Positions 25,235-50,810 of a stretch of DNA of 64,000 nucleotides are shown one piece after another. The position numbers and the translations under genes were made by a program. The stretch's first letter is position 1; each line of letters begins with the position of its first letter. The notes under the pieces were generated by a model, which saw nothing but the letters and a program-made list of their open reading frames with translations, did not search any database and was not told the origin of the DNA. Source of the stretch: Candidatus Methanomethylicus oleisabuli (GTDB lineage: Archaea > Thermoproteota > Methanomethylicia > Methanomethylicales > Methanomethylicaceae); assembly GCA_001717025.1 (NCBI GenBank), contig MAGU01000068.1, forward strand, positions 307 to 64,306, read 5' to 3'.

Positions 25235-25295
25235 CACTCCTTTATTTTTTAATGCACCTTCTTGTATTTGTAAGCAATGTTTTAATATTTCCGCT
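25235..25295 (+). promoter_or_regulatory. Putative mcr promoter region (TATA-like TTTATTTTTTAA and TTTTAATATTT)
   Basis: AT-rich boxes 40-100 nt upstream of mcrB. The mcrB RBS GAGAGGAG sits 7 nt before the ATG. Confidence 0.35.
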
Positions 25296-25335
25296 AGGTT
25301 ATTTAGACCGCAACAAAACTCTAGAGAGGAGTCCT

Positions 25336-26670
25336 ATGGCGAAATATTCAGATAAAGTAGATCTATACGACGATCGAGGACGTGTTTTCGCCTCTAAGGT
25401 TCCTTTAGAGGCTTTGAGTCCATTGCAAAACCCAGCAATACAAAAAATTGTCTCTTTCGTGAAACAGTGCGTCTCCGTCAATCTAGAGGGCGTTGAGAAG
25501 TCTCTTGCGACTGGAGCAGTCGGTGGCAAGTCATGCATTATTAACGGAAGGTCTCTTAAATTGGACCTTGTTAAGAATGCAGGAAGCATTGCCGATACGA
25601 TTAAAAAGACTCTCCAGGTCTCGGCCGACGATGATACCGATGTAAAGGTCCTCAAGGGTGGGAAGCACCTTCTAGTGAGAGTCCCAGCCAAGAGGATGAA
25701 TGCCGGTGTCGAATATACCACAGGAGCAACCTCAACCGCAGCGGCCCTCTGTTGTGCTATTGTCGACAACTTCAATGTTGGCATCTGGGATGCGGACTTA
25801 GTTCATGCCTCTGTTTGGGGTAGATACCCTCAGACAATGGAAATGCTAGGCGGAAACGTGTCTTCGTTACTATCCGTTCCACAGCAGAATGAAGGTATGG
25901 GATACGCTCTTAGGAACGTTCCTTGCGCACACATTGCCTTGATTACAAGGAAGAATGCCATGAACGCTGCAGCCCTTTCCTCAATAATGGAACAGGCTGC
26001 GATGTTTGAGATGGGCGATGCTATTGGCGACTTCGAGAGGCTCCATATTCTGGGCCTTGCCTACCAGGGGTTGAACGCAAACAACTTGGTATATGATATC
26101 GTCAAAGCGAATTCAAAGACCGGCACTCTGGGCGATGTAGTTATATCCACTGTGAAGAGGGCAATTGACGATGGCGTAATCAAGCCACTTGCAAAGGCGC
26201 CATCTGGCTACATAAACTACACGACTGACGACCTCAACAAATGGAACGCATATGCCTCAGCGGGTCTTCTTGCCGGAACAATGGTGACTTGTGGTGCAGC
26301 AAGATCAATGCAGCATACACCATCTGTATTCATCTACTTCAACGACCTAATCGAAAGGGAGACGAGCCTGCCAGGTGTGGACTTTGGCAGAGTTGAAGGT
26401 ACAGGTGTTGAGATGGCCTTCTTCAGCCATTCTATATATGGCGGAGGCAACCCTGCCGTATTTGCCGGCAACCATATCGTGACAAGGCACAGCAAGGGCT
26501 TCACGATACCGTGCGTCGCGGCAGCAGTAGCTCTTGACGCTGGAACAACCATCTACACACCAGAGAAGATCTCTGGCACGATTGGTGAGGTGCTGAGTGA
26601 AGTAGCCGAGCTAAGGGAGCCTCTGAAGTATGTCAATGAGGCCGCAGTAGCAATCAAGGGAGGAGTCTAA
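25336..26670 (+). CDS. mcrB: Methyl-coenzyme M reductase beta subunit
   Basis: Full-length McrB-like sequence of about 445 aa from [15 protein letters not shown] with a strong SD. The longer track ORF from 25252 is unlikely. Confidence 0.93.
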
Positions 26671-26671
26671 A

Positions 26672-27448
26672 ATGGCAACTTACAAACCACAATTATATCC
26701 TGGAAACTCAAAGGTTGCCGCTAACCGAAAGAAGTACATGGATCCATCCTATAAGCTCGAGAAGCTAAGGACCGTCAGCGATGACGATATTGTGAGACTC
26801 ATGGGCCATAGAGTCCCAGGAGAGGCTTACAAGAGCGTCCACCCGCCTCTTGAGGAGATGGGTGAGCCGTCTTGCCCTATCCGAGAGCTTGTAGAAGCGA
26901 CACCCGGCGCTAAGGCTGGTGACAGGATAAGGTACATACAAATGACCGACTCCGTCTACTTCACGCCGTTGACCCCATACATGAGGGCATGGTCAGGGCA
27001 TACAAGGTACCGTGGCGTAGACATCGGCGTACTCTCAGGAAGAGTTCCACTTGAAGCGAGGGAAAGGGATCTTGAGAAGGTTGCCAAGGAGCTTGTAGAA
27101 ACTGAAATCTTCGATCCTGCAAGGTGTGGGATTAGGGGCGCGACCGTCCACGGCCACTCTCTGAGGCTCGACGAGAACGGTCTGATGTTCGATGCACTCC
27201 GCAGGTTCCAGTTTGACAAGAAGACTGGCGAAGTAGTCTATGTCAAGGACCAGATCGGCGTTCCTCTGGACAAGCCAATCTCAGTTGGTAAGCCAATAAA
27301 GGAAGAAGAGCTCAGAAAGAGGACAAGCGAGTATAGAGTCGAAGATGTAGCCTTCAGGACCGACAAGGAAGTCATTAACTTCATCGAGCGGCTCCATATG
27401 CTCAGGACGGAGGCAGGCTTTGATCCGAACAGGGTCAAGGGTATCTAA
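26672..27448 (+). CDS. mcrG: Methyl-coenzyme M reductase gamma subunit
   Basis: 258-aa McrG-like sequence. SD GGGAGGAG is embedded in the mcrB 3' end. Confidence 0.93.
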
Positions 27449-27462
27449 GGAGGTAGCATGAA

Positions 27463-29133
27463 ATGAGCTCAGAGAATAAAATGTTCATAGAAGCGCTTCG
27501 CAAGAAATTCAAAGAAGCGCCAGAGGACAAGAACACGAAATACTACATCTACGATGGCTGGAAGCAGTCGAAGAGGAAGAGAGAGTTTGTAGAAGCTGCC
27601 AAGAAGGTTGCAAAGGAGAGGTCGATCCCATTCTACAACCCTGATATGCACCTCGGTGGAATACCGATGGGGCAGAGGGTACTGATGCCCTACAGAATTT
27701 CCAACACCGACGTATACGTGGAGGGCGATGACCTGCACTTTGTCAACAACGCTGCTATGCAGCAGATGTGGCACGACATCAGGAGGACCGTAATCGTCGG
27801 TCTAGACTCTGCCCACACCGTGTTGCAGAAGCGTCTTGGCAAGGAAGTGACTCCGGAGACAGTCAATCACTACCTAGAAGTGCTGAACCACGCACTCCCG
27901 GGCGCCGCAGTCATCCAAGAGCATATGGTTGAAACCAACCCAGGTCTAGTGTCTGATAGCTACGTCAAGGTCTTCACCGGCGACGACGAACTGGCCGATG
28001 AGATTGACCCGCGCATGCTGATCAACATCAACAAGGAATTCCCTGCAGACCAAGCGGCATCCCTCAAGAAGGCTATCGGCAATAAGATCTACCAAGTGCT
28101 GCACATGCCAACAATTGTCTCAATGACCTGCGATGGTGGGACCATGTCAAGGTGGGCCGCTATGCAGATCTCCATGTCCATGGTGAACACCTACAAGCTG
28201 ATGGCAGGTGAAGCCGCTATCGGCGAGTTCGCGTTCGCGGCAAAGCACGCTGAAGTCATCGAGATGGGAACACTCATGCCATGGCGGCGCGCTAGGGGTC
28301 CAAACGAGCCTGGCGGCATACCTCTTGGATACATGGCGGATATATGCCAAGGATCGAGGGTAAAGCCAGAAGACCCTGTTTGGGTTGCGCTTGAGTCAAT
28401 CTCAATGGCAGCGTTGCTGTATGACCAGATCTACTTCGGCAGCTATATGTCAGGCGGCGTAGGATTCACGCAGTATGCAACATGCACATACACCGACAAC
28501 GTCCTAGACGACTTCTGCTACTACGGCGCAGACTACGTCAAGAAGAAATACGGCGGCTTTGCAAAGACCAAGCCAAGCTGGGACCTGATCAAGGACGTGG
28601 GAACTGAAGTAACGCTGTACGGCCTTGAGCAATATGAGAAGTACCCGGCGCTCATGGAGACCCACTTCGGCGGCTCACAGAGGGCAGCGGTGGTGTCTGC
28701 GGGCGCAGGTGTTGCGGTGTCTCTGGCTACAGGGCACTCGACCGCTGGCATCAACGCTTGGTATCTGAGCCAACTGCTCCACAAGGAGGCGATGGGAAGG
28801 CTTGGATTCTATGGCTATGACCAGCAGGACCAGTGCGGTTCAGTCAACAGCTTCTCATACAGGAGCGATGAGGGTCTGCCGTTCAACCTGAGGGGCGTCA
28901 ACTACCCCAACTATGCGCTCAACGTAGGTCACCAGTCTGCATACTGTGGCATCGTTTCTGCTGCGCATGGCGGAAGGAATGACGCTTGGACGACCAGCCC
29001 GCTCATCAAGGTGGCATTTGCCGACAAGGACCTGAAGTTCGACTTCACACACCCGAGGCTATGCTTCGCAAAAGGTGCGCTGAGGGAGTTCGTCCCAGCC
29101 GGCGAGAGGGACTTGATAATCCCGTCGCACTAA
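27463..29133 (+). CDS. mcrA: Methyl-coenzyme M reductase alpha subunit
   Basis: Canonical McrA motifs: AKHAEV (methyl-His site), [13 protein letters not shown] (methyl-Arg site), GFTQYA (methyl-Gln site), [12 protein letters not shown] (thio-Gly, didehydro-Asp and methyl-Cys positions at nt 28813-28836), and YxxxxGGSQR. Confidence 0.95.
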
Positions 29134-31099: not shown

Positions 31100-32035
31100 T
31101 TGCATTTGGAATCTCTTGCTCAGGTGATCTCGGCGGCTAAGAACTATAAAGGTCTTAAAAGGAAACTCGAGATCGGTGAGATCATCCAAATCCTGGGGGA
31201 GTCTGATTACGATGACGCCGGCGTTCTTGATATGGGTGACCTTAAGATCGTTGTATCCGCTGATGGGATCACAGAAGACCTCGTAAAATCAGACCCGTGG
31301 TTTGCAGGCTACTACTCGGTACTGGTGAACGTCAACGATGTCGTTGTCAAGGGGGCAAAGCCGATGGGGTATGTCGACGTTATCTCCGGGTCCCCAGAAA
31401 CTAGGCGAAAGATGGCTGAGGGAATTAAGACAGGTCTGGAAAAATATGGTCTCAAGCTCCTCAAGGGTCACACGCATCCTGATTCTTCATACGAGGCGAT
31501 CGATGCCGCGGTCGTCGGTATCGCAAAGAGGGTTGCCAAAGGAACCGATGCAAGACCTGGCGATAAGCTGATAATGGCGATAGACCTCGAAGGGTCCTTC
31601 GGAACAAAGGGCTGGGTGAGGTGCTTCGACAGCACACTTCACCGCACCCGGGATGACCTGCAGCTAATGGTCTCGACAATAGTGGCTGCCATAGATAATG
31701 GGTACATCTCCTCATCGAGAGACATCAGCGCCCCTGGGATACTCGGCAGTTTAGCTATGCTCTGCGAGGCCAGCGGCGTCGGTGCCACAGTGGATTTGGA
31801 AACGATCCCCAAACCCCCTATGATATCGCTCTCTGACTGGCTCATCTCTTACCCTGCGATGGGCTTCATATTTGCCTCTAAAGACGTTGCCATCCTCGAG
31901 ACTCTGCGAGGCGTTGGCTTCTCTGCAGAAGTTGTGGGCAACTTCACCGAGTCGAAGCAGATTACAGTCTCGATGGGAAACGAAAAGGGCGTCTTTATGG
32001 ACCTAGCACTGGAGTCCGTTTTTGGACTGCGCTAG
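31100..32035 (+). CDS. AIR-synthase-related (PurM-like) protein, candidate methanogenesis marker protein 2
   Basis: PurM-like N-terminal DDAGVLDMGD motif. About 311 aa, matching Mmp2 size. TTG start. Sits between the mcr operon and the ycaO-tfuA-A2 operon. Confidence 0.5.
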   Translation: MHLESLAQVISAAKNYKGLKRKLEIGEIIQILGESDYDDAGVLDMGDLKIVVSADGITEDLVKSDPWFAGYYSVLVNVNDVVVKGAKPMGYVDVISGSPETRRKMAEGIKTGLEKYGLKLLKGHTHPDSSYEAIDAAVVGIAKRVAKGTDARPGDKLIMAIDLEGSFGTKGWVRCFDSTLHRTRDDLQLMVSTIVAAIDNGYISSSRDISAPGILGSLAMLCEASGVGATVDLETIPKPPMISLSDWLISYPAMGFIFASKDVAILETLRGVGFSAEVVGNFTESKQITVSMGNEKGVFMDLALESVFGLR

Positions 32036-33625
32036 CTCCTCCCTCTCCTCTGGCGTGAAGAACTTGATCACCTCTGCGGGGCTGCCCATCTTGGCTATCT
32101 TTCCTTCTCGCATGAGTATTGCCTCCTCACAGGTGTTCAACACGAATCCAAGATCATGAGAGACTATGATGAATGTCTGACCGAGTTCGTTTCTTGCGGT
32201 CTTTATAGAACGCGAAACGTCCTGTTGCGTTATCGGGTCCATTGTACCCGACGGCTCGTCTAAGATCACTATTATCGGCTCACGTATGAGCACCTGCGAC
32301 AGAGCAACGCGGTGCCTCTCCCCTTCGCTGAGCTCGTCCGGATACTTCTTGAGAGTTTCCTCTATTCCGCCCTCTTCAAAACCTGCTGCTGCGAGAACGT
32401 TGTGCGCTTTGAACTTGGCAAACTCGTCCGGCAACTCCAGACCTATCGCGTCGGTGAGGTTCTCAAGCACAGTCCTATAAGGGTAGAGCGTATACTCTTG
32501 GTGTAGCAACCCCATGTAAGGCGTGGCCCTGCCTCTGCCTAGCGGTCCGGGCTCAAGCATGTTGATCCACTCGTCTCCGATCTTCATCTCGATCCTTCCC
32601 GAGGTCGGCGCAGTCACCCCGCATATGGCTCTTGAGAGTGTTGTCTTCCCAGCGCCGCTCATACCAATTATTCCGAATATCTGCTTCTCCTTCACCTCGA
32701 AGCTCACGCCATCTAGCGCTTTAACAACGCCCTTGTCTATCGAGAAGTAATGCTTCTTAAGGTCAGATACTTTAAGAATCGCCTTTCCAGGCTCTTTAGG
32801 CGCCGGGATCTCCTCCGGATTTAGCCTGCTCATAAATTTTGCAACAACGCTCTTCGTGTCGCCCTCGGCATCTATCCTGCCATCTTCGAGCAGAACCGCT
32901 CTCTCGGAGATCGCCTCAATTGCCTCGGGGACATGCGATGTGACAAGAAGCGTTGTGCCCTTCTTCTTCACCTCATCTATCAAGATGCCGTATATCGCCT
33001 TCGCGTTTATTGGATCCAACGTCCCTGTTGGCGCGTCTGCGAGGAGCAAGACTGGGTTAACCGCTAGCTGCCTGCCGAGCACCACCCTCTGCTTCTCCCC
33101 GCCGCTAAGGTCCCGAGCCGTGTGGATAAGCCGGTTCGAAAGCCCCATGCTCTTGGCTATCTCTATTGCCCTCTTGTTTATGTCACTCTCCGGCACCCCG
33201 CTCTTGCTCAGCGCCTCTATGAGATTCTCATAAACAGTCATGCTTCCGTAAAGAGCAAAAGTCCTCTGGAACATTATTGATATTCTGTTCCTTAGTGCCT
33301 TAGCGTATGAATCGTTCCTCCAAAGGTCTACCTCCAGCAGCTCCATCTTACTATAACATCTTGGGCAGACCTTCCCCGCCTTGCTGGGCCCATCTATATG
33401 CTCACATTCCTTGCAAATCGCAATCCTATATGTGATCCTTCCAGACGAAGGGGCATAATCGGATATGCCCTTTAGCATCGACAAAAGTACGGTCTTGCCC
33501 GAGCCGCTCCTACCAATTATTCCAAGCCTCTCCCCCTCTCCTATGGTCAATGAGATGTTGCTGAGGACTTCCTTTGTGCCGAACTTCTTTGATACTCCGT
33601 CAATGATGATGAATGGCTCGCTCAT
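32003..33625 (-). CDS. atwA: MCR component A2-like ABC ATPase (two nucleotide-binding domains, no TMD) with a Cys4 zinc-ribbon insert in NBD1
   Basis: Two Walker A sites (GRSGSGKT, GMSGAGKT), two signatures (LSGGEKQR, LSEGERHR), and a CKEC...CPRC insert. Start MSEPFIIIDG. Confidence 0.65.
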   Translation of the reverse strand: MSEPFIIIDGVSKKFGTKEVLSNISLTIGEGERLGIIGRSGSGKTVLLSMLKGISDYAPSSGRITYRIAICKECEHIDGPSKAGKVCPRCYSKMELLEVDLWRNDSYAKALRNRISIMFQRTFALYGSMTVYENLIEALSKSGVPESDINKRAIEIAKSMGLSNRLIHTARDLSGGEKQRVVLGRQLAVNPVLLLADAPTGTLDPINAKAIYGILIDEVKKKGTTLLVTSHVPEAIEAISERAVLLEDGRIDAEGDTKSVVAKFMSRLNPEEIPAPKEPGKAILKVSDLKKHYFSIDKGVVKALDGVSFEVKEKQIFGIIGMSGAGKTTLSRAICGVTAPTSGRIEMKIGDEWINMLEPGPLGRGRATPYMGLLHQEYTLYPYRTVLENLTDAIGLELPDEFAKFKAHNVLAAAGFEEGGIEETLKKYPDELSEGERHRVALSQVLIREPIIVILDEPSGTMDPITQQDVSRSIKTARNELGQTFIIVSHDLGFVLNTCEEAILMREGKIAKMGSPAEVIKFFTPEEREELAQSKNGLQC

Positions 33626-33709
33626 ACGCACACCGCAGAACACTTTATCTTGAAAATCGTGATATATAAACAAACTGAATTGCTGTTGTTGGGGGGCAAT
33701 AAAGACGCA

Positions 33710-34399
33710 TTATCTTGTTTCATACACTTTATTCTTTAGACGCGCGCTAACATCCTTCAGCACCTCCATCGCATCGATGCGTTTTTGGTCGACATGCTTC
33801 TCAATCATTAGTGAAGCGATCGTTCGGCAACGATCAGGCGGCATTCCCGTGTGTAGCGCTCTCTGGCATATCCTCATGGGATTCCTGAACTGGAACGGCG
33901 TCTCGCTTGCTGCCTTCAAGAAAGATTCCTCCTCCTCCGGCGTTATCTCTCCTGAATTTGCGAGCCCTTCAAGCGTAGCCCTTATATTGACCATCGGCTC
34001 TGAGATCGGCGCTAGCGTCTCTGGGTGGAAGACCAGCGCAACCTCATCATCCGATGATATCTTTCCATCTTTATACCATCTGTATATCTTGCCAACGCCT
34101 ACCATTCCGTATGCGTCCATCTCTGCTGCCCTCAGTGCTCCCATGCTTGATCCGCCCACCACTACGACGCCTCTTTCGATAGCGTATTTTATCTCCCTGT
34201 GTGCCACCGCATTCCGCTGGTAGAAGACCCCATCAATTAGCCCTATTATCTCGAAACCTTCGTCTGTAGCCGAAACTATGTCTCCCCTGCCGGCTGGCGG
34301 ACGGAAGGTTGCAGATGGGAGTACCCTGATCGCCTCGGCTATGGGCGCGCTCGGCCCCAAGAAAATTACTGCCCTTCGACGGCGCTTAAGCAACCCCAC
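33710..34399 (-). CDS. tfuA: TfuA-like protein (partner of YcaO for McrA thioglycine formation)
   Basis: TfuA-domain sequence of about 229 aa immediately downstream of ycaO. Confidence 0.75.
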   Translation of the reverse strand: MGLLKRRRRAVIFLGPSAPIAEAIRVLPSATFRPPAGRGDIVSATDEGFEIIGLIDGVFYQRNAVAHREIKYAIERGVVVVGGSSMGALRAAEMDAYGMVGVGKIYRWYKDGKISSDDEVALVFHPETLAPISEPMVNIRATLEGLANSGEITPEEEESFLKAASETPFQFRNPMRICQRALHTGMPPDRCRTIASLMIEKHVDQKRIDAMEVLKDVSARLKNKVYETR

Positions 34400-34408
34400 T
34401 CACCTTAG

Positions 34409-35644
34409 CTACTGGCTATGCCCCCTCAGCCTCTTGCCGGCTCTTTCTTTATCCATGGCATATACCTCTAAACCCGGAACTATTACCCTCACTGCGGGCA
34501 CCTCTGTCTCGGTCCGAGTTAAGTCTGCAACAACCACCTCGTCCAGTCCAACGGATGATAGCCTCCGAAGCGTGTATCTTATGTCGTTCAGGAAATCGCT
34601 GCTGTCGAATGTCGGCATCTCGTCTAACGATGCCTCCACTCCAGTCCCTTCAAACCACTTGCGATTGATGCGCTTCATCCTCTCGTAGCCCGCCCTTCTT
34701 GCGAAATCCGCCTTGTACGTGTCCTCTCTTGTGCCGTGTATTGTGGTTAGTCTGCTCTGGACGGCTTCCGTGAACGCCCGCAATGCCGCAATCTTGGGAT
34801 CTGGGTGCGTTCCAACTCCCAATGAAAGGAGGGCAGGGTCTCTTGTAGCTTCATCATCGAGTGCTACTGCGATGGTGGCTATTCCAATGTCGGATGTTAT
34901 GTCCTTCGCGTATGCCTTTACGCTTGCCCTACTCAGCCTGCCGACGATCTCGCCTATGGGGCCGTTCATTTCTGATCCTATGTTGAGGTCTCTGCCCTTT
35001 AGCGTGCCGTGCTCGAAGAGCGACCACGAATCCCTTTCTATGACTTCCATCAAGCCGTGGAGTATCGCCTCCTCGAAAAGATTGCCGACAGCAAGCCCGT
35101 TCGTGTTCGTCCTGAAGAGCTGGTTTTTGCGGCTGTAAGGATGAAAAACCGCCTCCGCTGGTACCAGTATCCAATGATCTTTACTGATCGAGAATCCCCT
35201 GAACCATTCTATCCTGTCAGAACTCTGGTAACTTACAGTCGCCGGCAATACGAGCCTCGTGGGATCGAGGACCGCGTCGCCCCCATTCTCGCATGCCCTC
35301 TGGAGCTCATCGTAGCTTCCGACCACGCACATGCCGCTCCTGGGCTCGGCGGAGAACCTCTCGATGCCCTCCATTATGGCTGAAACCTGCGCCTCCTCCT
35401 TCGTGAACCCCTTCCCAGCATAGACCGTTACTGCACCATCCGCGGCGCCGGGTCTTACCGATGTGAATACAGGTACGCCTATCCTGTCAAGCCCGGTGAT
35501 CTCCGCAACCCTGGTTATGCCTGCGTTAAGAAGGGCTCCCTGAACGTGCTCGAGTGTGGTCGCCGGTGAGGATGCGCGATGGGTATCCAGCAGGTAGCCC
35601 TTTGGGGCAGGTTTAAGAATCATTCGTAGTCCCACTGCAGCCAA
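34409..35644 (-). CDS. ycaO: YcaO-domain protein (methanogenesis marker protein 1; McrA Gly thioamidation)
   Basis: YcaO ATP-binding region (EGIERF... motif family). 411 aa. Paired with tfuA. Confidence 0.8.
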   Translation of the reverse strand: MAAVGLRMILKPAPKGYLLDTHRASSPATTLEHVQGALLNAGITRVAEITGLDRIGVPVFTSVRPGAADGAVTVYAGKGFTKEEAQVSAIMEGIERFSAEPRSGMCVVGSYDELQRACENGGDAVLDPTRLVLPATVSYQSSDRIEWFRGFSISKDHWILVPAEAVFHPYSRKNQLFRTNTNGLAVGNLFEEAILHGLMEVIERDSWSLFEHGTLKGRDLNIGSEMNGPIGEIVGRLSRASVKAYAKDITSDIGIATIAVALDDEATRDPALLSLGVGTHPDPKIAALRAFTEAVQSRLTTIHGTREDTYKADFARRAGYERMKRINRKWFEGTGVEASLDEMPTFDSSDFLNDIRYTLRRLSSVGLDEVVVADLTRTETEVPAVRVIVPGLEVYAMDKERAGKRLRGHSQ

Positions 35645-36883
35645 TCACTTTGACTCTTCGAGGTCTTTCATACCTGAGACCATTACCGCCGCCCCAACGC
35701 ATCCTATGAGGTTAGGCCTCTTGGGGACGATCATCTCAACGCTCAGGATCTCTGATAGCGCCTTTACAAGACCCTTGATCATCGCAGTTGAACCGACCTC
35801 AATGATGGGGTATCTTATGTCGATCTCCTGCAGTTGCTGCTCAAATACCTGCTCGGCAACGCTGTGGCACGCCGCGGCTGCCGCATCCTCCGTCTTGGCC
35901 CCCCCTGCGAGCCCTGCGACTAGGTCCTGCAGCCCGAAGACGATGCAGTACGCATTCATTGGCACTGCCTTATACTCCCCCTTCGCAGAAAGTTCGCTGA
36001 ACTCCTCCATAGATAGCCCCAGCCGCTTGGCGGTCGTCTCTAGGAACCTCCCAGAGGCGCCTGCACATGCTCCCCCAACCGTAAAGCTGTCCGGTATGCT
36101 ATCATAGAGCGTTACAGCCTTGTTGTCCATACCACCTATGTCTATGACCGTCGCGTCTCCCTTCTGCTTGTCCGTGAGGAAGAGCGCGCCCTTGGAGCAT
36201 GTCGATACCTCCTCCATTGCAAGCTGAGCCTTATACTTCTCCTTTAGTATGGTTCTCCCGTACCCAGTGACGCCCACCGCCTCCACCGCTTCCTCGCTCA
36301 GCCCCGCCTCCTTCAATGCTTGGTTCAATGCTGCGATGCCCGACTCAAGAACACCTGTTGTTGGAAACCAGCCCGAACCTAATATCTCGTTGTTCTTCAT
36401 CACAACCGCCTTCGTTGTCGTCGAGCCTGAGTCGATGCCGGCGGTTATCCCCTCCTGCTTAGTCCTTGCAAAGAGAGGTTTTTTGCCTATTATGTTTACA
36501 AGAGCCTCCATCCTCAGCAGGAGCGCACCTGCCTTAGACCTCTCAGTGAATGAGTATGATACGACCGGTATCTTCGACTGGCTTTGGATATATCTCCGGA
36601 TCACGCTCCTCACTAGCGCCCCCTCTGCGCATCTGAAGCAGCTCGCAATAAATACCCCATCAGCGTCAACCCTGCCCTCTACTATCGCCTTGGCCCTTGC
36701 CATCATCACCCTTAGCCCTGGGCTAGCCACGTGGAATCCTATCTCCTCCTCGGCGGCTCTTATCTCTGAAGCCTCGATCTCCGGCGTGAAGATGTTGCCA
36801 CCAACGATATGCGCTGCCTTCTCGATTTCGTTTTGAACACCGCTGTATTCTGAGCCGCATGAGATCTGCGCTATCCTGACCAT
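35645..36883 (-). CDS. BadF/BadG/BcrA/BcrD-type ATPase (ASKHA), candidate methanogenesis marker protein 15
   Basis: 412 aa. ASKHA motifs (GIDSGSTTTK, DIGGMD). First gene of the mmp15-ycaO-tfuA-A2 operon. Confidence 0.55.
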   Translation of the reverse strand: MVRIAQISCGSEYSGVQNEIEKAAHIVGGNIFTPEIEASEIRAAEEEIGFHVASPGLRVMMARAKAIVEGRVDADGVFIASCFRCAEGALVRSVIRRYIQSQSKIPVVSYSFTERSKAGALLLRMEALVNIIGKKPLFARTKQEGITAGIDSGSTTTKAVVMKNNEILGSGWFPTTGVLESGIAALNQALKEAGLSEEAVEAVGVTGYGRTILKEKYKAQLAMEEVSTCSKGALFLTDKQKGDATVIDIGGMDNKAVTLYDSIPDSFTVGGACAGASGRFLETTAKRLGLSMEEFSELSAKGEYKAVPMNAYCIVFGLQDLVAGLAGGAKTEDAAAAACHSVAEQVFEQQLQEIDIRYPIIEVGSTAMIKGLVKALSEILSVEMIVPKRPNLIGCVGAAVMVSGMKDLEESK

Positions 36884-45788: not shown

Positions 45789-46343
45789 CTAATCGAAACC
45801 AACAAGTATGGTGCCTAGCTTCGGGTCTTTCGTATCGAGCCCCATCCTCTTCTTTATGTAGCTGTCTACGGGGGGCGATGGGCTTCCGACTACCGCATAA
45901 GGCCCTAGCCTATCTGGCATCTCTAGCGGCAATATCTGAACCCGCATCTCATCCCGCTCCTCCTTCATTTTTCCCATCTTGTCCTTATAGAAGACTATCT
46001 CCCCGACAACTATGTCGCCCCTCTGTTTGCACTCTTCTATCTTTGCAGGGTCTATGACCTCCTCTCCAATCAGCTCAGATCCACAGGTCAACTTTATCAA
46101 TGAGCAACGCGGCCACTGCATAGTTCCATCTGTTAGTCCGCCTACCAAGTTCTTCCTCTTTAGCGCCTCCCGCACGCCGACATTGATGCCTTTGCATAAC
46201 CCCATCAGGACGCTATTCTCCGCCTCACTCTCGAGCCTCTCAATCTCCGCGCGGTCCTTATCATTCAACTCAATTGTCCGTATGATTCCTTGCATCGTGG
46301 AGAGCTCTTTCAGGACATCGATTTTGTAGTTATCTGCTGACAT
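45789..46343 (-). CDS. Hypothetical protein, last gene of the Mmp/A2/RACo operon
   Basis: 14-nt overlap with the upstream RACo-like gene. 184 aa with no recognised domain. Confidence 0.4.
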   Translation of the reverse strand: MSADNYKIDVLKELSTMQGIIRTIELNDKDRAEIERLESEAENSVLMGLCKGINVGVREALKRKNLVGGLTDGTMQWPRCSLIKLTCGSELIGEEVIDPAKIEECKQRGDIVVGEIVFYKDKMGKMKEERDEMRVQILPLEMPDRLGPYAVVGSPSPPVDSYIKKRMGLDTKDPKLGTILVGFD

Positions 46344-48222
46344 ATACTCTGACCACCTTGGGCGCCTTTATCGACCCTGCCGTTTCAGGGAACATATTTA
46401 GCCTGCTATTGGGCATATACATCGCATTGATGTACTCCTCAGTAAATATCGGCTCGGCCGCCAACTCAATGTACTTCATCCTATCTGCGACCTCTATAGC
46501 CTCGCGTCTAAGATCGAGCGACTTCAAGCATATCCGTGCGCCGGACCCTGCTGTATTCCCCGTAAATGATATCCTATCCAGTGGAACTTCAGGTATCATA
46601 CCGAGCACTCTAGCGCTGGCAGGGTCTATATAATTCCCAAACGCGCCGGCGATGATTATCTCATTCAATTCTGCCGTTGTATGTCCGCTCTTCCTCATAA
46701 GCGTCATATACCCGCCAAACATTGCTGCCTTAGCCTTTTGGATCTCCCTTACGTCATCCTGGGATACGACGATGTCCTCCTTTCCAGACGCTGTCTCCTC
46801 CTTCGGCACAAGCACAAACTCCTTTCCCATCGGCGTGACCCTGACTCCCTTGTGCCCTTCCACTAGTTTCCCGGACGTGTCTAGTGCTCCGCACTTGAGC
46901 ATCTCCGCTATGGCATCAATTATCCCTGAGCCGCAGATACCCCTTGCCTTTTCATCGTCTATGGTCTTGTATATTACCTCATCTTCTATGATTCTTACCT
47001 TCTCAACCGCCCCGTTCGCAGCACGCATGCCATTCTTTATATGCGCCCCCTCAAAGGCAGGCCCTGAAGCTGTCGAGCATGACCATATGCCTTCCCTGCC
47101 TCCAAGCATGACCTCCGTGTTCGTTCCGACATCCATCAGCAATGTCAGCTTCTCCTTCTCATGCAGCCTACATGCGAGGGCGTCCGCTATCGCATCCGCC
47201 CCGACGAACCCCGCAACGTTAGGGAGCACATGGACGTTTCCTGATGCGTTGATTGATATTCCAAGGTCCCTAGCCTTGATGTCATACGCCCTGCCCAATC
47301 CTGCCGGGTATGGCGCCAGTCCTAGGCTCTTAGTGTTGACCCCCACAAAGAGGTGGTGCATAGCCGTATTGCCAACCGCGACCATTTCGTATAGCTCCCG
47401 CCTTTCAATGCCTGTTTCTGTGAGCCCTTTCTCTATGAGCTCATTTATGCCATCGACTATTGCCTTCTGCACCTCGCCGAGCTCTCTTTCACCTTGGGCG
47501 GCGTAGTTGATGCGCGATATGACGTCCTCGCCGAACCTTATCTGGGGATTCATCATACCATCTGCGAATGCTATCCCGCCATCCATGAGGTCAACAATGA
47601 AGACCGCGAGTTTCGTAGTTCCGATATCAACCGCAACGCCAAAGGACCTCTTTCTAGTATCGCCCTCCTCGACCCCTATGACCTCTTTCCCTCCGAGGAT
47701 CACTGCCGTGACCTTCCAGTCGGCCCTTCTCAATATCGTCGCAATCTTCGTGGCAATTCTGTAGTCAAGCCTGACATCCAAGACCCCTTTTGAGCCAAGT
47801 GAAGAGTACAGTCTGATGTCATCCGCAACAGTATCGTGGAGCGTGGGCGGCGCGAGCTCAAGGTAAACCTTCTCCACGTTGCTCCTGATCTTGACGGGTG
47901 GCTCCTTACCCATTATCACTAGCCGTTGCCTGCCAACTCTGCTCTGGTCTGGAACCCTTATTGTAACGTTTCCCTTGACCTTAGCTAAGCAAGCAAATCT
48001 GTAGCCCTTCTCGGCCTTCTCCTTTGGGATCCTCTTCAGTTCAACATCTGTGATGGGAGAGACTTCCCCCTCTATGACCTCGACAAGACATTTGCCACAT
48101 AGCGACTTGCCGCCGCATATTGAAGCTATATCGACCTCGCCTTTGACTGCAGCACTCATGAGTGTCGTTCCTTCAGGCACCAAAACCCTCTTGCCCTCTG
48201 GCAAAAATTTCACTTCAAACAT
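46330..48222 (-). CDS. RACo-like ATP-dependent reductive activase: N-terminal plant-type [2Fe-2S] ferredoxin domain + C-terminal ASKHA ATPase (COG3894/DUF4445)
   Basis: CGGKSLCGKC...C ferredoxin motif. Long ASKHA domain (VDIGTTK, DVGTNTE, GICGSG). Start MFEVKFLPEG, 8-nt overlap with the upstream A2 paralog. Confidence 0.7.
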   Translation of the reverse strand: MFEVKFLPEGKRVLVPEGTTLMSAAVKGEVDIASICGGKSLCGKCLVEVIEGEVSPITDVELKRIPKEKAEKGYRFACLAKVKGNVTIRVPDQSRVGRQRLVIMGKEPPVKIRSNVEKVYLELAPPTLHDTVADDIRLYSSLGSKGVLDVRLDYRIATKIATILRRADWKVTAVILGGKEVIGVEEGDTRKRSFGVAVDIGTTKLAVFIVDLMDGGIAFADGMMNPQIRFGEDVISRINYAAQGERELGEVQKAIVDGINELIEKGLTETGIERRELYEMVAVGNTAMHHLFVGVNTKSLGLAPYPAGLGRAYDIKARDLGISINASGNVHVLPNVAGFVGADAIADALACRLHEKEKLTLLMDVGTNTEVMLGGREGIWSCSTASGPAFEGAHIKNGMRAANGAVEKVRIIEDEVIYKTIDDEKARGICGSGIIDAIAEMLKCGALDTSGKLVEGHKGVRVTPMGKEFVLVPKEETASGKEDIVVSQDDVREIQKAKAAMFGGYMTLMRKSGHTTAELNEIIIAGAFGNYIDPASARVLGMIPEVPLDRISFTGNTAGSGARICLKSLDLRREAIEVADRMKYIELAAEPIFTEEYINAMYMPNSRLNMFPETAGSIKAPKVVRVYVSR

Positions 48223-49891
48223 TGTCACATGTCTCCATGAATCTACCAACAACTTCTTTCGGCTGCCCATCCGATATTACTTTCCCATTTTTTATCAAAA
48301 TACATCGATCCGAGACCTCCTCGACGAAATCAAGCTGGTGGCTCACAAGCACTATTGCTGGCTTTAGCGTCTGCTTTATGCGTTTTAATGAGTTTGATAC
48401 TATCCTGAGCGTCCGTGGGTCCAGATCCCCGAATGGCTCATCGAGTATAATGATACGTGGCTTTGCAATTACGGCCAATGCAAGTGCTACCCTTACCTTC
48501 TCTCCTCCTGAGAGTTCGTACACATGTCTATCGAGAATCTCGCTGCCAAGACCCATCAGCCCCAAGGCTGAAAGCGCAACCTCCTTCGCTATCTCGGGGT
48601 CCTTGCTTCTGAAGAGCGATTTAAGGACCTCTCGATCTATTCCTATCTCCCTCAACTTTGCTTGGACCTCTGCATCAGGCATATCTGCGACCCTGTGGAG
48701 GGCATCGACTGTTTCATCACTGATTCCGGCCTTCTTTGCCCTTTTGAGCGCATCCTCTACCATTTTATAATCTTTGATTCCTACCTTCGCCGCGAAGAGC
48801 TCCAAGACTCTTGACCAGTATGAGAGGTCAAACTCTTGGTGAAGTATGCCAATCTGCCTCCTTGCGTGCATGCTGCTCCTCCCTAGTTTCTGTAGTTTGA
48901 CCCACTCGTCCTTGTAAATGACATTGACCTCGCCCGAGTCGGGCATCTCAAGACCTGCCAACATCCTCAATAAAACCGTCTTTCCAGCGCCAGAAGGACC
49001 GATGATGCCTGTTATCTCTCCTCGCCTGAACTCGAGGTTCGTATTATACAGCTCAAATACCTTGCCATATGGTACGAGTTTGTAGACTCTTGTAACATCC
49101 TTAAACGCCATTGCTACAGGCCCCTTCAGAACCGATTTTGGCAATGGCGGCTCCATCTTTGAGAGATATCTATTCAAAACGCCCTCTACGTCGCCGCTGT
49201 CCGCAATCCTGCCCCCCTCAATCAGGATCATCCTCTTGGCAAGAGCTCTGTGAAAATTTGGGTTATGGGAGGCAAATATTATCGCCATGTCGAGCTCCTT
49301 GTTTGCCCTCCTGAGTGCATCTATCAGGTCAATCCTAGTCTCTGGGCAGGTCATAGTGCCAGGCTCGTCCAACAGAAGCAACTTCGGTCTCCTTGCAATC
49401 TGCCTCGCTACTATCAGCCTCTGCTTCTCCCCGCCGCTCAGAACCTCCGACCACAAATCTGCCCTGCTGTCCAATCGCACTATCCTGAGTAGCTCCATCG
49501 CCTCCTCCCTGTGCTCCTCATATTCACCCTCGTCCTGAGGCATTGACTCCTCTCCCATTTCGACATACCTCATAGCCCTGATCACGTTATCCACTGCCGA
49601 GTCAGGCCATAGCCCAAAGTTCCTCTGTAGCTGTATTGCTGTCTTTTCTTGGAGCTGGATGTAGGTGCTCTTGGGCGAATCCGGTCTTACTTCAACGTCC
49701 CCAATCTTTATCGAACCACTATCAAAAGGCTCGACCCCCCTCAATATTCGCAACAAGCTGCTCTTTCCGGCGCCGCTGCCTCCCATGATTCCCAACATCT
49801 CTCCCTCGCCCAAGGAGAATGAGACGTCGTTCAAAGCCGTTATTTTGCCGTCAAGGTATGTCTTCTTTAGCCCGTTAACCTCAAGTAACAT
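48215..49891 (-). CDS. Second MCR component A2-like double-NBD ABC ATPase (paralog)
   Basis: Walker A GGSGAGKS / GPSGAGKT, signatures LSGGEKQR / LSGGEKVR. No TMD. Embedded in the Mmp cluster. Confidence 0.65.
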   Translation of the reverse strand: MLLEVNGLKKTYLDGKITALNDVSFSLGEGEMLGIMGGSGAGKSSLLRILRGVEPFDSGSIKIGDVEVRPDSPKSTYIQLQEKTAIQLQRNFGLWPDSAVDNVIRAMRYVEMGEESMPQDEGEYEEHREEAMELLRIVRLDSRADLWSEVLSGGEKQRLIVARQIARRPKLLLLDEPGTMTCPETRIDLIDALRRANKELDMAIIFASHNPNFHRALAKRMILIEGGRIADSGDVEGVLNRYLSKMEPPLPKSVLKGPVAMAFKDVTRVYKLVPYGKVFELYNTNLEFRRGEITGIIGPSGAGKTVLLRMLAGLEMPDSGEVNVIYKDEWVKLQKLGRSSMHARRQIGILHQEFDLSYWSRVLELFAAKVGIKDYKMVEDALKRAKKAGISDETVDALHRVADMPDAEVQAKLREIGIDREVLKSLFRSKDPEIAKEVALSALGLMGLGSEILDRHVYELSGGEKVRVALALAVIAKPRIIILDEPFGDLDPRTLRIVSNSLKRIKQTLKPAIVLVSHQLDFVEEVSDRCILIKNGKVISDGQPKEVVGRFMETCDNV

Positions 49892-49900: not shown

Positions 49901-50809
49901 TCACTGGAACATCGATGCGGGAAGAACCTTCACTAATATGTAGTCCCTCATCTGTGATCTCTTAATCATCGCGAACCCTCCTAGGCGCTTGCCATTAATC
50001 ACAATATTGCTTACTCTGTCCTTGTACTCATCATAGTTGAGCTTGATCCTGACGCCATCTATTTTTAACGTGACCGGGTTCGGCGAGAGTGCCTCCTTTG
50101 CCTCGGGGATCTGCCTCTCCACCTCGTCCTTGACGACCGTCGGCTCCAATACAAGCGGGTCTAGATCAAGCTCCCTGCGCCTCTCCTCTACGACCTTCCC
50201 GGCCATCTCAGAGACCGACTTGAGCTTGTTTATCATGTCCCCCGTCCTAGCGCGTTCCGGATACCTTCCGATCCCGCCGACATATCCATGCGCCCCCTCT
50301 ATGCTTCCAATCTCAGGTCCTCCAGTCACTATGACCGGGATGGCTAAGTCCTTGTAGAGCTGGGGTTTATACTTGACTAAGCAATGCTCAAAATTGCCTA
50401 GCGTGAAGACTGCAATGTCGTGCTCTTCTATCAGTTCCCTCTCCTTAGGGGAGCTGTGCACTATCTTCTGCCCCACCCCCCTAGAGAGCCCAATGATGTT
50501 TGTCTTTGCCCCGTGCCTCCTTAGGTTCTCCGCAACATCACATGCTGGATGGGGCAGATGGTGCCTCGACAGGGTCGGCGCGACAACTGCAACCTCGACT
50601 CCAATAAGTGGCGCCGGCGTGATCTTCCCCCTAACCTCGGCCGCCAACTTATTTAACTTTTCCAGCTCCTCCTCAGGAACTGCGAGATTCATTATGAGGT
50701 CAAGCCCAGCAACATTCTTCTGGACTACGAACCCGCCGACATCCTCAATGAATTCCGTGATCATCTCGTGCCTGTAGAGGCCGCCCTCGAAGAGGAGATA
50801 CTTCAGCAT
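49901..50809 (-). CDS. Candidate methanogenesis marker protein 7
   Basis: About 302 aa. Position between the Mmp17-like and A2 genes, as in canonical Mcr-associated clusters. Assignment by size and context only. Confidence 0.45.
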   Translation of the reverse strand: MLKYLLFEGGLYRHEMITEFIEDVGGFVVQKNVAGLDLIMNLAVPEEELEKLNKLAAEVRGKITPAPLIGVEVAVVAPTLSRHHLPHPACDVAENLRRHGAKTNIIGLSRGVGQKIVHSSPKERELIEEHDIAVFTLGNFEHCLVKYKPQLYKDLAIPVIVTGGPEIGSIEGAHGYVGGIGRYPERARTGDMINKLKSVSEMAGKVVEERRRELDLDPLVLEPTVVKDEVERQIPEAKEALSPNPVTLKIDGVRIKLNYDEYKDRVSNIVINGKRLGGFAMIKRSQMRDYILVKVLPASMFQ

Positions 50810-50810
50810 A

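Follow-up and report, generated by a model that had tools for sequence, protein, structure and literature searches.

A predicted canonical component A2 and its zinc-less sister A2L in a split MCR island of the Methanomethylicia

We analyzed a 64-kb stretch of DNA, hereafter the window, that contains genes for two tandem-NBD ATPases of the component A2 type. Comparison with homologues indicates that the ATPase with a Cys4 element, encoded at 32003-33625 on the minus strand, is nothing other than component A2 (atwA), the MCR-activating ATPase that has been characterised before. The second ATPase, at 48215-49891 on the same strand, belongs to a zinc-less family designated A2L. It is likely that the two represent canonical A2 and an ancient sister protein residing together in an MCR island that is split into separate units. 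The operon structure and the function of A2L given below are predictions drawn solely from sequence context.

The MCR island occupies 25-55 kb of the window, whose lineage is uncultured Methanomethylicia (Verstraetearchaeota, Thermoproteota). The mcrBGA operon (25252..29133, plus strand) lies ~3 kb from the 3' end of A2; mcrA scored 978 bits against TIGR03256, and mcrB and mcrG were assigned by synteny and tblastn. A DUF2098 gene (30568-30840, minus strand; PF09871) follows; a DUF2098 protein was copurified with the activation complex of M. maripaludis (PMC12176620). A gene for an Mmp2-like AIR-synthase-related protein (31100-32035, plus strand; TIGR03267, 249.7 bits, below the cutoff of 365) is convergent with A2 and overlaps it by 33 nt. 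An mcrD-like gene (53364-53747; PF02505), mcrC (53744-54436; TIGR03264, 284.6 bits), and mmp5 (54405-54869; TIGR03271, 203.1 bits) are located on the plus strand and diverge from the mmp3 array. The same markers, also close to mcr, constitute the MCR activation operon of M. acetivorans (A2, Mmp5, Mmp6, Mmp17, Mmp7, Mmp3, and Mmp15), and the same marker genes form the mmp3-6-5-15-17-7 clusters of other Euryarchaeota. In contrast to both, the set in the window is broken up into three units. One, mcrD-mcrC-mmp5, is read from the opposite strand; the second runs from mmp3-6-17-7 through A2L and a RACo-type gene to two unknown genes; and in the third, mmp15-ycaO-tfuA precedes A2. The place adjacent to mmp7 is held by the zinc-less A2L instead of A2.

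In its ATP form, A2 binds McrG and drives a conformational change required for the reduction of F430 to Ni(I). The A2 ORF (32003-33673) scored 733.8 bits against TIGR03269 (cutoff 517.1) and aligned from end to end with A2 of the solved activation complex (8S7V_K/9H1L) at 586 bits (residues 6-528 of the chain with 24-547 of the query). The start is most likely ATG at 33625 and not TTG at 33673, because homologues begin at an equivalent MGEPF/MGVPF and because the ORF extended to the TTG contains the TTTATATA box described below. The resulting product of 540 aa is a soluble tandem-NBD ABC ATPase with Walker A, signature, and Walker B motifs in both NBDs, and it is of the same length class and architecture as A2 of M. 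maripaludis (8S7V/9H1L chain K) and M. acetivorans (MA_3998). Its gene follows mmp15-ycaO-tfuA near mcrBGA, whereas that of M. acetivorans is inside the mmp operon and that of M. thermautotrophicus stands alone.

The Cys4 element, C71-x2-C74-x12-C87-x2-C90 (33356..33415, minus strand), corresponds to residues 71-90 of NBD1 (CKECEHIDGPSKAGKVCPRC; CKEC-x12-CPRC). The first-pass annotation had located it in this ATPase and noted its absence from the paralog at 48215-49891, with which our alignment of the two proteins (A1) agrees. It had called the element an insert; the element is, however, not peculiar to this A2. The CxxC-x12-CxxC motif was found in all 118 full-length A2 homologues, with spacing variants in the distant ones, and was kept even where A2 is single and has no ycaO-tfuA/mmp15-type linkage. 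In M. maripaludis A2, which is structure-verified, CPHC..C-EC stands in register with the window motif, and C71/74/87/90 of the window protein have nearly the same numbering as C70/73/86/89 of known A2. The structure of the M. maripaludis activation complex shows a Zn ion at the loop (PMC12176620). Mutation of the four cysteines in M. acetivorans A2 lowered its ATPase activity, and the zinc motif was described as a hallmark of canonical A2 (bioRxiv 10.64898/2026.03.18.712670). On the alignment, the element is thus the family-wide zinc-binding motif and not a lineage-specific insert. Since Cys4 is the hallmark of canonical A2, the roles proposed earlier, maturation for the Cys4 protein and activation for its paralog, are reversed: the activation ATPase defined by experiment has its orthologue in the Cys4 protein, and the 'activation' operon holds the divergent copy, A2L.

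A2L, a protein of 558 aa, scored 315.5 bits against TIGR03269, under the cutoff; of the two proteins taken for A2, only that with Cys4 passes this model. Nevertheless, they are true paralogs, since no protein of solved structure is closer to A2L than A2, by either sequence or predicted fold. The best PDB match of A2L was 8S7V_K (225 bits; the next match, 117 bits), and the AF2 model (pLDDT 89.3) had 8s7v_K as its top Foldseek match (TM 0.76/0.81). The zinc motif was found in none of the 239 members of the A2L family, and the Walker B D-E pair was present twice in 237 of them; both pairs are intact in the window A2L. Two insert blocks in alignment A1, not present in A2, form an extra helical bundle in NBD2 (~aa 372-455; 48527..48778, minus strand), a feature of the A2L family, and the AF2 model placed helices at 362-454.

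Phylogenetic trees were constructed by NJ on corrected p-distances, not by maximum likelihood. When the 92 most similar generic tandem ABC ATPases served as the outgroup for the whole proteins, A2, A2L, and A2+A2L each received 100% bootstrap support, and grouping of either paralog with generic cobalt/nickel-type ABC ATPases was not seen. In a tree of the separate domains, NBD1 of A2 and NBD1 of A2L came together at 69% bootstrap (54% with two outgroup sequences attached instead), the NBD2s gave the mirror-image figures, and N1 joined N2 of the same family at 0%. Both families occur across Euryarchaeota and Thermoproteota, and A2L also in Helarchaeota. Because the trees place A2 and A2L as sister families, the paralogy appears ancient and not local, and a local sub-functionalisation of A2, as envisaged in the first-pass annotation, does not hold. 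The zinc-less 'component A2 homologue' clade, to which A2L is assigned here, served solely as the outgroup in Adler & Nayak (2026). Like the M. acetivorans MA_3967 type, A2L is zinc-less, has two NBDs, is sister to A2 (in a set without Methanosarcina sequences), and is widespread in MCR/ACR archaea. Unlike that type, A2L of the window lies within the mmp3-6-17-7 operon and is coupled to a RACo-type gene; our literature search found no paper describing this arrangement.

The array directly 5' of A2L (49901..53332, minus strand) consists of mmp3 (51770-53332; TIGR03268), mmp6 (51360-51773; TIGR03272), mmp17 (50811-51359; TIGR03291), and mmp7 (49901-50809; TIGR03274), each above its cutoff. The mmp7 stop codon is separated from the A2L ATG by 9 nt, which include GAGGT, and the ATG of the RACo-type gene (46330..48222, minus strand) overlaps the A2L stop codon by 8 nt (ATGTTTGA). 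The array from mmp3 through the RACo-type gene ends with two conserved genes on the minus strand, p184 (45789-46343), which overlaps the RACo stop codon, and p195 (45174-45761); neither had a Pfam or NCBIfam match, and both are found 3' of RACo in Methanomethylicia loci. From spacing and conservation, translation of A2L would be coupled to that of mmp7 on its 5' side and to that of the RACo-type activase on its 3' side.

The order mmp3-6-17-7-A2L-RACo-p184-p195 was observed in all Methanomethylicia loci of sufficient length (L001, L010-L020), which reflects inheritance in one lineage, not eleven independent observations. In Methanomethylicia, A2L thus sits inside an MCR-activation operon, and the earlier statement that the two ATPases belong to two different MCR-associated clusters applies across this class. 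In Nezhaarchaeota, A2L is located between mcrD and mcrAGB, and at locus L054 between mmp7 and mmp17. The gene order of A2L in Methanomethylicia and Nezhaarchaeota is a modestly new point. With gene context and phyletic pattern as the only guides, the likeliest reading, still a tentative one, is that A2L would be a second MCR-directed remodelling ATPase, acting with Mmp3/6/17/7-McrC and lacking the redox switch proposed for the zinc motif.

A2L might instead be a soluble ABC-type ATPase unrelated to MCR, for example one of the stress response, whose placement among mmp and mcr genes in Thermoproteota methanogens is accidental. This is rather unlikely, although the euryarchaeal neighbourhoods speak for it. 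No mcr or mmp gene was found within 10 kb of A2L at ~70 euryarchaeal loci (57 Methanobacteriales-type loci plus those of Methanoperedens, Methanosarcinales, and Archaeoglobi). A2L adjoins a gene for a universal stress protein (Usp) at 52 of the 57 Methanobacteriales loci and in these archaea is often near genes of oxidative stress (rubredoxin, ferritin, peroxiredoxin, and SOD), and on a Helarchaeota contig it is near a CobN-type chelatase gene, a neighbourhood that is not mcr-related. On the other hand, three distinct embeddings among mcr/mmp genes (Methanomethylicia, Nezhaarchaeota, and L054) argue against an accident, as do the translational-coupling signals that flank A2L on both sides in the window and its closest relationship, in sequence, fold, and phylogeny, to A2. 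The named hosts of A2L are Methanobacteriales, Methanococcus voltae, Methanothrix, Methanoperedens/ANME-2, Methanoliparum, Hadarchaeales, Helarchaeota, and Archaeoglobi WYZ-LMO2, and each of these lineages includes members bearing MCR/ACR. In addition, the stress-gene neighbours would also suit a protein that repairs or re-activates oxidised MCR.

The product of the gene downstream of A2L, a reductive activase of 630 aa, aligned over its full length with C. hydrogenoformans RACo (3ZYY, 375 bits). It has the four RACo Pfam domains (PF00111, PF17650, PF17651, and PF14574), and it shares the four-domain architecture of RACo, with an N-terminal [2Fe-2S] ferredoxin, a linker, a middle domain, and a C-terminal ASKHA ATPase. 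Its scores were under the equivalog cutoffs of AcsV (486 vs 800) and RamA (139 vs 500), and its gene is in an mmp operon, whereas those of RACo/RamA-type activases adjoin acs or methyltransferase genes. These properties could be taken to mean that A2L and the activase form a module in which ATP drives the reductive re-activation of corrinoid proteins from the methyltransferase systems, and that this module merely shares the operon with mmp genes. The overlap of the two genes fits such a module, and so does the restriction of the A2L-RACo pairing to Methanomethylicia, which are obligate methyl-reducing methanogens; the pairing was observed neither in Nezhaarchaeota nor at any euryarchaeal locus. 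We nevertheless consider it improbable: to our knowledge, RACo and RamA enzymes function without an ABC ATPase partner, A2L is widespread without an adjacent RACo gene, and its nearest relative targets MCR and not corrinoid proteins.

The unit upstream of A2 is composed of mmp15, ycaO, and tfuA on the minus strand. Curated-cutoff scores confirmed the first-pass assignment of these genes and the double-NBD ATPase gene at 32003-36883. Mmp15 (methanogenesis marker 15; 35645..36883; TIGR03286, 624.5 bits with a cutoff of 455.75; PF01869) has a BcrAD/BadFG (HgdC/HadI-type) ASKHA ATPase domain. Its C-terminal 255 residues aligned with 4EHT, 1HUX, and 9GAI; for residues 147-401 and the 2-hydroxyisocaproyl-CoA dehydratase activator 4EHT, the score was 109 bits, with one cysteine conserved in CA(A/G)xxGRF and another in C(T/I)VF. 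Mmp15 thus shares one cysteine in each of the motifs CAxxxGRF and C(T/I)VF with HgdC/HadI-type activators of 2-hydroxyacyl-CoA dehydratases ('archerases') and BcrAD of benzoyl-CoA reductase; in the activators, these cysteines ligate a [4Fe-4S] cluster. What sets Mmp15 apart from them is an additional ~140-aa domain at its N terminus and its membership of TIGR03286, a family specific to methanogens. Mmp15 is therefore predicted by similarity to be an HgdC-type ATP-dependent electron-activating ATPase.

The YcaO-type McrA-glycine thioamidation protein (methanogenesis marker 1; 34409..35644; TIGR03266, 440.5 with a cutoff of 365; PF02624) and its TfuA-related partner (33710..34399; NF033432, 239.0 with a cutoff of 235.2; PF07812) would thioamidate one glycine of McrA. 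The start codon of ycaO is uncertain (TTG at 35644 or ATG 24 nt downstream). Each of the two passes its methanogen-specific equivalog model, and ycaO lies directly upstream of tfuA, as in M. acetivorans (MA0165/MA0164; PMC5589413). The stop and start codons of the M. acetivorans pair overlap and the pair is flanked by sulfur-metabolism genes, whereas the window pair is separated by 9 nt, with an AAGGTGA Shine-Dalgarno sequence, and is flanked by mmp15 and A2.

Co-transcription of all four genes, as initially assumed, is not established by their spacing. Since ycaO abuts the mmp15 stop codon (0 nt) and tfuA follows after 9 nt, these three genes would form a single tight transcription unit. A2 is set apart by a spacer of 84 nt (33626..33709, minus strand), which holds a putative archaeal TATA box, TTTATATA, at 33663-33670, ~38 nt 5' of the A2 ATG. 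The box matches the consensus, and just three relatives were compared for its conservation. The exact 8-mer occurs six times in 64 kb (~1 expected). The block 'tttgtttatatatc.cgatttt' is kept 5' of A2 in L007 and L009, although A2 of L009 is just 74% identical to that of the window; L008 has another, merely AT-rich sequence at this position. A2 therefore probably has its own promoter, and spacing and conservation suggest that it is expressed at least partly from within the spacer.

The order mmp15-ycaO-tfuA-A2 was kept at three other Methanomethylicia loci. In Nezhaarchaeota, a Methanomassiliicoccales MAG, L092, and M. acetivorans, mmp15 and A2 are found beside mmp genes without ycaO-tfuA, and because of this pairing in other lineages ycaO-tfuA looks inserted. 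The mmp15...A2 pair may thus have been displaced from the usual activation cluster, and ycaO-tfuA separates its two genes. Since A2 probably has its own promoter and is linked to mmp15 elsewhere without ycaO-tfuA, there is no indication that A2 is functionally tied to thioamidation. The proposal that a specialised Cys4 A2 serves McrA maturation or thioamidation with YcaO-TfuA and Mmp15, leaving A2L as the real activation A2, would account for A2 following ycaO-tfuA at these loci and for A2L following mmp7 so closely, but it is very improbable and already largely refuted by orthology, because the Cys4 protein is a full-length orthologue of MCR-bound A2 that passes the equivalog cutoff which A2L does not, its motif is universal in A2 even in single-A2 organisms without such linkage, the TATA-like element of A2 is its own and conserved, mmp15 and A2 pair without ycaO-tfuA, and we know of no ATPase besides YcaO required for thioglycine formation. 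Thioglycine is moreover formed without TfuA in Methanocaldococcus and Methanopyrus (PMC5589413).

Canonical A2 of the window differs from known A2 at one catalytic site. Where the catalytic Glu of Walker B in NBD1 is expected, the codon GCG (33032..33034, minus strand) encodes Ala198 (LLLADAPTG); D-E is present here in 117 of the 118 A2 homologues, including the 99%-identical P0149. If the substitution is real, it may weaken MCR binding, by analogy with the E200A mutant of M. acetivorans A2.

Four co-oriented ORFs occupy the minus strand of 32003-36883, and all four exceeded the cutoffs of curated family models. They were assigned as mmp15 (35645-36883; TIGR03286, 624.5 bits against a cutoff of 455.75), ycaO (34409-35644; TIGR03266, 440.5 bits against 365), tfuA (33710-34399; NF033432, 239.0 bits against 235.2, a narrow margin), and the gene of component A2, a tandem-NBD ABC ATPase also called AtwA (ORF 32003-33673; TIGR03269, 733.8 bits against 517.1). 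The first-pass annotation had read the sequence itself correctly: the four genes lie where it placed them, and the Cys4 sequence CKECEHIDGPSKAGKVCPRC is found in NBD1 of A2 (33356-33415) and is absent from the second double-NBD ATPase at 48215-49891. The adjacent ycaO and tfuA genes are of the methanogen type, with ycaO upstream and a gap of 9 nt containing AAGGTGA; by orthology to characterised proteins, YcaO-TfuA is the predicted machinery for McrA thioglycine formation. Mmp15 contains an HgdC/HadI-type (BcrAD/BadFG) ATPase domain, and its alignment with 4EHT keeps one Cys each in CAxxxGRF and C(T/I)VF, which we take to be cluster ligands as in the activator family. Within 32003-36883, antisense ORFs with lengths of 125-195 aa were rejected as genes, being shadow ORFs of the well-supported genes on the other strand. 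The complete 64-kb window gave no matches in Rfam and tRNA scans.

The A2 protein aligned with TIGR03269 colinearly over its full length (residues 23-549 with model positions 2-529 of 530), and its residues 24-547 aligned at 586 bits with chain K of 8S7V/9H1L, the A2 of the M. maripaludis MCR activation complex. Residues C71, C74, C87, and C90 were in register with CPHC...C-EC of 8S7V_K. This CxxC-x12-CxxC element has been named the zinc-binding motif (ZBM) of A2 and sets A2 apart from related ABC ATPases (10.64898/2026.03.18.712670). The ZBM was present in 118/118 full-length A2 homologues of our sample, and four Cys with altered spacing were found in more distant A2 representatives. In four of the latter (P0405, P0408, P0414, P0418), the first Cys pair is Cx4C, Cx6C or CxC. 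Since the spacing varies in distant lineages, the strict CxxC-x12-CxxC pattern would miss some true A2 proteins. Thus, the Cys4 element, which had been described as an insert of this A2 that its paralog lacks, is a known hallmark of canonical A2 rather than a genome-specific feature, and a lineage-specific zinc-ribbon insertion was rejected. The motif is not new: zinc was seen in the cryo-EM structure, and the Cys residues were tested by mutagenesis. The C70A/C73A/C86A/C89A variant of M. acetivorans A2 retained ATP binding, lost about half of its ATPase activity, and was no longer stimulated by MCR at all (10.64898/2026.03.18.712670). Among A2 orthologues, those of M. maripaludis and M. acetivorans are the only ones for which ATP-dependent binding to McrG/MCR and MCR-stimulated hydrolysis have been reported (PMC12176620; 10.64898/2026.03.18.712670). 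By orthology, the window A2 is predicted to serve in MCR activation as an ATP-binding remodelling ATPase with a zinc motif.

Walker A, signature, and Walker B motifs are present in both NBDs of A2. NBD2 is intact, and the Walker B of NBD1 reads LLLADA instead of ...DE; in this LLLADAPTG stretch, an Ala codon (GCG, 33032-33034, minus strand) replaces that of the catalytic Glu. The Glu is found in 117/118 A2 homologues, among them a 99%-identical protein. The corresponding E200A variant of M. acetivorans A2 retained a higher ATPase activity than the variant mutated in NBD2 and bound MCR poorly (10.64898/2026.03.18.712670). The replacement is most simply explained as a single-base strain variant or a consensus/assembly error.

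The A2 coding sequence almost certainly starts at the ATG at 33625, because homologues start equivalently and a TATA box would fall inside the longer ORF. The ycaO start directly follows the mmp15 stop, and the junctions of mmp15-ycaO-tfuA are tight; tfuA and A2 are separated by a spacer of 84 nt (33626-33709, minus strand). Since the host is an archaeon, exact matches to a TATA box were sought, with shuffled sequence as control, in preference to a sigma-70 scan. The sequence TTTATATA occupies 33663-33670 and precedes the A2 ATG by about 38 nt; 6 exact copies of this 8-mer were counted in the window, against about 1 expected. The block 'tttgtttatatatc.cgatttt' (tttgTTTATATAtc.cgatttt) is also present before A2 in two relatives (L007, L009), in one of which the protein identity is only 74%, and in a third the position of TTTATATA is taken by another AT-rich sequence. 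This consensus and its conservation suggest a dedicated archaeal promoter for A2 inside the apparent operon, from which A2 would be expressed at least in part. Judged from the spacing, there would be three expression units, namely mmp15-ycaO-tfuA, A2, and the genes from mmp3 through p195. The first-pass annotation had called all four genes of 32003-36883 co-transcribed; this may apply to mmp15, ycaO, and tfuA and is less certain for A2.

The second ATPase (48215-49891, minus strand), which we call A2L, differs from A2 in several respects. The first-pass annotation had taken both ATPases as A2. This holds for 32003-33625; A2L scored 315.5 bits on TIGR03269, against the cutoff of 517.1, in three separate stretches, and lacks the Cys4 motif, although this model was still its best family. 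No CxxC was found in the first 130 residues of the window A2L or of 239 relatives. Compared with A2, A2L is devoid of the ~32-residue ZBM segment and carries two additions, a short acidic stretch inserted into NBD1 and a further helical bundle within NBD2 (~aa 372-455). Walker A, LSGGE, and the D-E of Walker B are kept in both NBDs, and two hhhDE motifs are present in 237/239 family members. The best solved relative of A2L was A2 (225 bits), ahead of an OppD/F-type fusion at 117 bits and ABCE1 at 111 bits. An AlphaFold2 model from a 14-sequence family alignment (pLDDT 89.3, pTM 0.85) gave 8s7v_K as the top Foldseek match in the PDB (E 3e-41, TM 0.76/0.81, 30% identity), and DppD/OppD ranked behind it with 20% identity. 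The nearest relatives of both A2 and A2L are in MAGs of Candidatus Methanomethylicia/Verstraetearchaeota; A2L shares 85% identity with a protein encoded on contig MAGT01000008.1 of GCA_001717035.1, and a sequence identical to the window A2 is present on a 67-kb NCBI contig.

An exhaustive phmmer search over 1.84 billion cluster representatives ranked the A2L family first (539 to ~235 bits), followed by A2 representatives (227 to ~170 bits); generic tandem ABC ATPases appeared at ~190 bits and below, overlapping the lower A2 range. From this search, 92 generic proteins were taken as outgroups in place of the approximately four generic ABC ATPases of the fetched loci. In a neighbor-joining tree of whole proteins (42 A2, 49 A2L, and the 92 generic proteins; 100 replicates), the A2, A2L, and A2+A2L clades each received 100% bootstrap support, and neither paralog was placed among the generic proteins, the outcome that the first-pass annotation had named as a refutation of its reading. 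A second neighbor-joining tree was built from 74 non-redundant proteins cut into NBD1 and NBD2 (200 bootstraps). All four sets of domains were monophyletic (87-97%); the NBD1s of A2 and A2L came together in 69%, or in 54% with two outgroup sequences attached, the NBD2s gave mirror-image figures, and the two halves of one family were grouped in 0%. The pairing of NBD1s and of NBD2s across families indicates that A2 and A2L descend from an ancestor which already had two NBDs. According to these trees, which are distance trees and not maximum likelihood, A2 and A2L are sister families that arose by an ancient duplication, and the proposed sub-functionalisation of A2 within this window is not supported. 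The assignment of A2L as a generic cobalt/nickel-type ABC ATPase was rejected by its best sequence relative and top fold match, both of which are A2, and by the tree.

With tandem NBDs, no zinc motif, and a sister position to A2, A2L belongs to the clade of the zinc-less A2 homologue (M. acetivorans MA_3967 type). This family includes proteins of Methanosarcinales, ANME-2, and Methanothrix. A search with a Methanosarcinales A2L (L082) listed at least 120 matches, all from Methanoperedens, ANME-2 or Methanosarcinales MAGs; no Methanosarcina sequence was among the matches listed, and A2L is a putative orthologue of MA_3967 itself.

The MCR island extends over 25-55 kb of the window. It begins with mcrBGA (25252-29133) and continues with genes for a DUF483 protein, a HAD hydrolase, a DUF2098 protein, and an Mmp2-like protein, and then with A2, tfuA, ycaO, mmp15, and a GTPase gene. 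After ~7 kb of housekeeping genes follow p195 and p184 (genes of two conserved proteins of 195 and 184 aa; 45174-46343, minus strand), which form the end of the mmp3...RACo array, then a RACo-type gene, A2L, mmp7, mmp17, mmp6, and mmp3. Divergent from mmp3, the mcrD-like gene, mcrC, mmp5, and a gene for a small HTH protein form a unit of their own (53364-55353, plus strand). This unit stands 24 kb from mcrBGA, and mmp5 and mmp15 are absent from the usual mmp3-6-5-15-17-7 array in the window. No Pfam or NCBIfam match was obtained for p184 or p195.

One genome per GTDB species was scanned with the A2L alignment, and the resulting 80 loci were annotated by tblastn with the marker proteins of the window. 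In Methanomethylicia (L001, L010-L020), mcrD-mcrC-mmp5-HTH was divergent from mmp3-mmp6-mmp17-mmp7-A2L-RACo-p184-p195 in every sufficiently long locus. In the window, the A2L ATG is 9 nt from the mmp7 stop with GAGGT between them, the A2L stop and the RACo ATG overlap (ATGTTTGA), and p184 overlaps the RACo stop. In two genomes of Nezhaarchaeota, A2L is flanked by mcrD and mcrAGB, and A2, mmp7, mmp15, mmp5, mmp17, mmp6, mmp3, and mcrC are within 10 kb of it. In the unclassified MAG 'archaeon isolate H03B2' (L054:797-5720), mmp6-mmp7-A2L is followed by mmp17 on the opposite strand and then by mmp3. This context and the phyletic pattern lead us to favour, tentatively and just short of even confidence, the possibility that A2L acts as a second MCR-directed ATPase together with the Mmp3/6/17/7-McrC proteins.

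A different context was seen in ~70 loci of Methanobacteriales type and of Methanoperedens, Methanosarcinales, and Archaeoglobi, in which no mcr/mmp gene was found within 10 kb of A2L. In the Methanobacteriales-type loci (L004, L006, L021-L089), A2L adjoins a universal stress protein (Usp) gene in 52/57, and genes for rubredoxin, ferritin, peroxiredoxin, and SOD are nearby in about half. The contexts in Methanoperedens, Methanosarcinales, Archaeoglobi, and Helarchaeota showed no consistent partner beyond a Usp gene and an S49 peptidase. On the Helarchaeota contig (L093:14296-20430), a large CobN/Mg-chelatase-type gene pair, which may be tetrapyrrole-related, lies 2.5 kb downstream of A2L, and no mcr/mmp genes were found within 10 kb. 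Such loci would be expected if A2L had no connection to MCR, an explanation that we regard as unlikely in view of the host range. The named hosts are Methanomethylicia, Nezhaarchaeota, Methanobacteriales, Methanococcus voltae, Methanothrix, Methanoperedens/ANME-2, Methanoliparum, Hadarchaeales, Helarchaeota, and Archaeoglobi WYZ-LMO2. To our knowledge, each of these lineages includes MCR- or ACR-bearing members, and A2L, where its host is named, would be confined to such lineages. If A2L is a second MCR-directed ATPase, it would escape the proposed redox switch because it has no ZBM. This would fit the stress-gene neighbourhood in Methanobacteriales, for example in the re-activation of oxidised MCR, which is a speculation.

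The RACo-type reductive activase encoded after A2L (46330-48222, minus strand) contains Fer2, RACo_linker, Raco_middle, and RACo_C_ter domains, all above the gathering thresholds, and matched 3ZYY at 375 bits over residues 2-613. The pairing of A2L with this gene was found in all sufficiently long Methanomethylicia loci and in no other sampled lineage. An extension of our favoured reading, which we consider improbable as a whole, is that A2L and the translationally coupled [2Fe-2S]/ASKHA activase constitute an unrecognised integral MCR-activation module of Thermoproteota methanogens, in which an ATP-driven injector of low-potential electrons and a zinc-switch-independent remodelling ATPase would feed the Mmp7/McrC/Mmp17/Mmp3 cluster chain. 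If so, the module would be a candidate for the physiological reductant of F430 that is still missing, and a family of proteins conserved throughout MCR/ACR archaea would acquire a function. The same pair could instead be a corrinoid re-activation module of the methyl-reducing Methanomethylicia, as the domain composition of the activase would allow. We hold this to be distinctly improbable. The activase scored below the cutoffs of both AcsV (NF040756; 485.6 bits, cutoff 800) and RamA (TIGR04270; 139.1 bits, cutoff 500).

The two ATPases had originally been assigned to different tasks, the Cys4-bearing A2 to post-translational modification and maturation and its paralog to activation. Three other Methanomethylicia loci keep the order mmp15-ycaO-tfuA-A2, with the convergent Mmp2-like gene and mcrAGB after it. 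Elsewhere, A2 stands alone in M. thermautotrophicus; a Methanomassiliicoccales MAG has it adjoining mcrC and an mmp3-6-5-15-17-7 array, and in another genome it diverges from mmp3-6-5-15-17-rSAM-7. It is located beside mmp7 and mmp15-mmp5 in Nezhaarchaeota and lies within a seven-gene activation operon in M. acetivorans. The common theme is the linkage of A2 with mmp15 and other markers, and the peculiarity of Methanomethylicia is the presence of ycaO-tfuA in between, which argues against a dedicated maturation role of the window A2. Although the operon structure first pointed to it, this division of roles is thus very improbable and the least likely of the readings.

A zinc motif in A2 and a homologue without it have both been published before; in the literature, we found no function assigned to this homologue and no description of the mmp15-ycaO-tfuA-A2 order. 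Nor did we find an account of the split activation cluster of Methanomethylicia, of a zinc-less paralog in the slot after mmp7, of A2L coupled to a RACo-type gene, of an mmp operon that contains a RACo gene, or of A2L between mcrD and mcrA in Nezhaarchaeota. The papers on the activation complex state that some "auxiliary" factors of MCR activation are still missing. The host range of A2L, its embedding among mcr/mmp genes in Methanomethylicia, Nezhaarchaeota, and L054, and its coupling to RACo in Methanomethylicia make it a testable candidate for such a factor, and gene context may thereby offer a functional lead on this uncharacterised family.

Several neighbouring genes of the island also recur elsewhere. 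The GTPase gene (36985-38151, minus strand) is directly upstream of mmp15, and its relatives in three loci (L007-L009) have MMR_HSR1 and TGS domains. The DUF2098 gene (30568-30840, minus strand) is located between A2 and the mcrBGA side; a DUF2098 gene also follows mcrA in one MAG of Methanomassiliicoccales (L091), and the DUF2098 protein of M. maripaludis was copurified with the activation complex, contacting McrC (PMC12176620). The AIR-synthase-related Mmp2-like gene (31100-32035, plus strand) scored 250 bits on TIGR03267, below the cutoff of 365. It is convergent with A2, the 3' ends overlapping by 33 nt; this arrangement is kept in L007-L009, and a similar AIRS gene is found near A2 in a further locus (L092).
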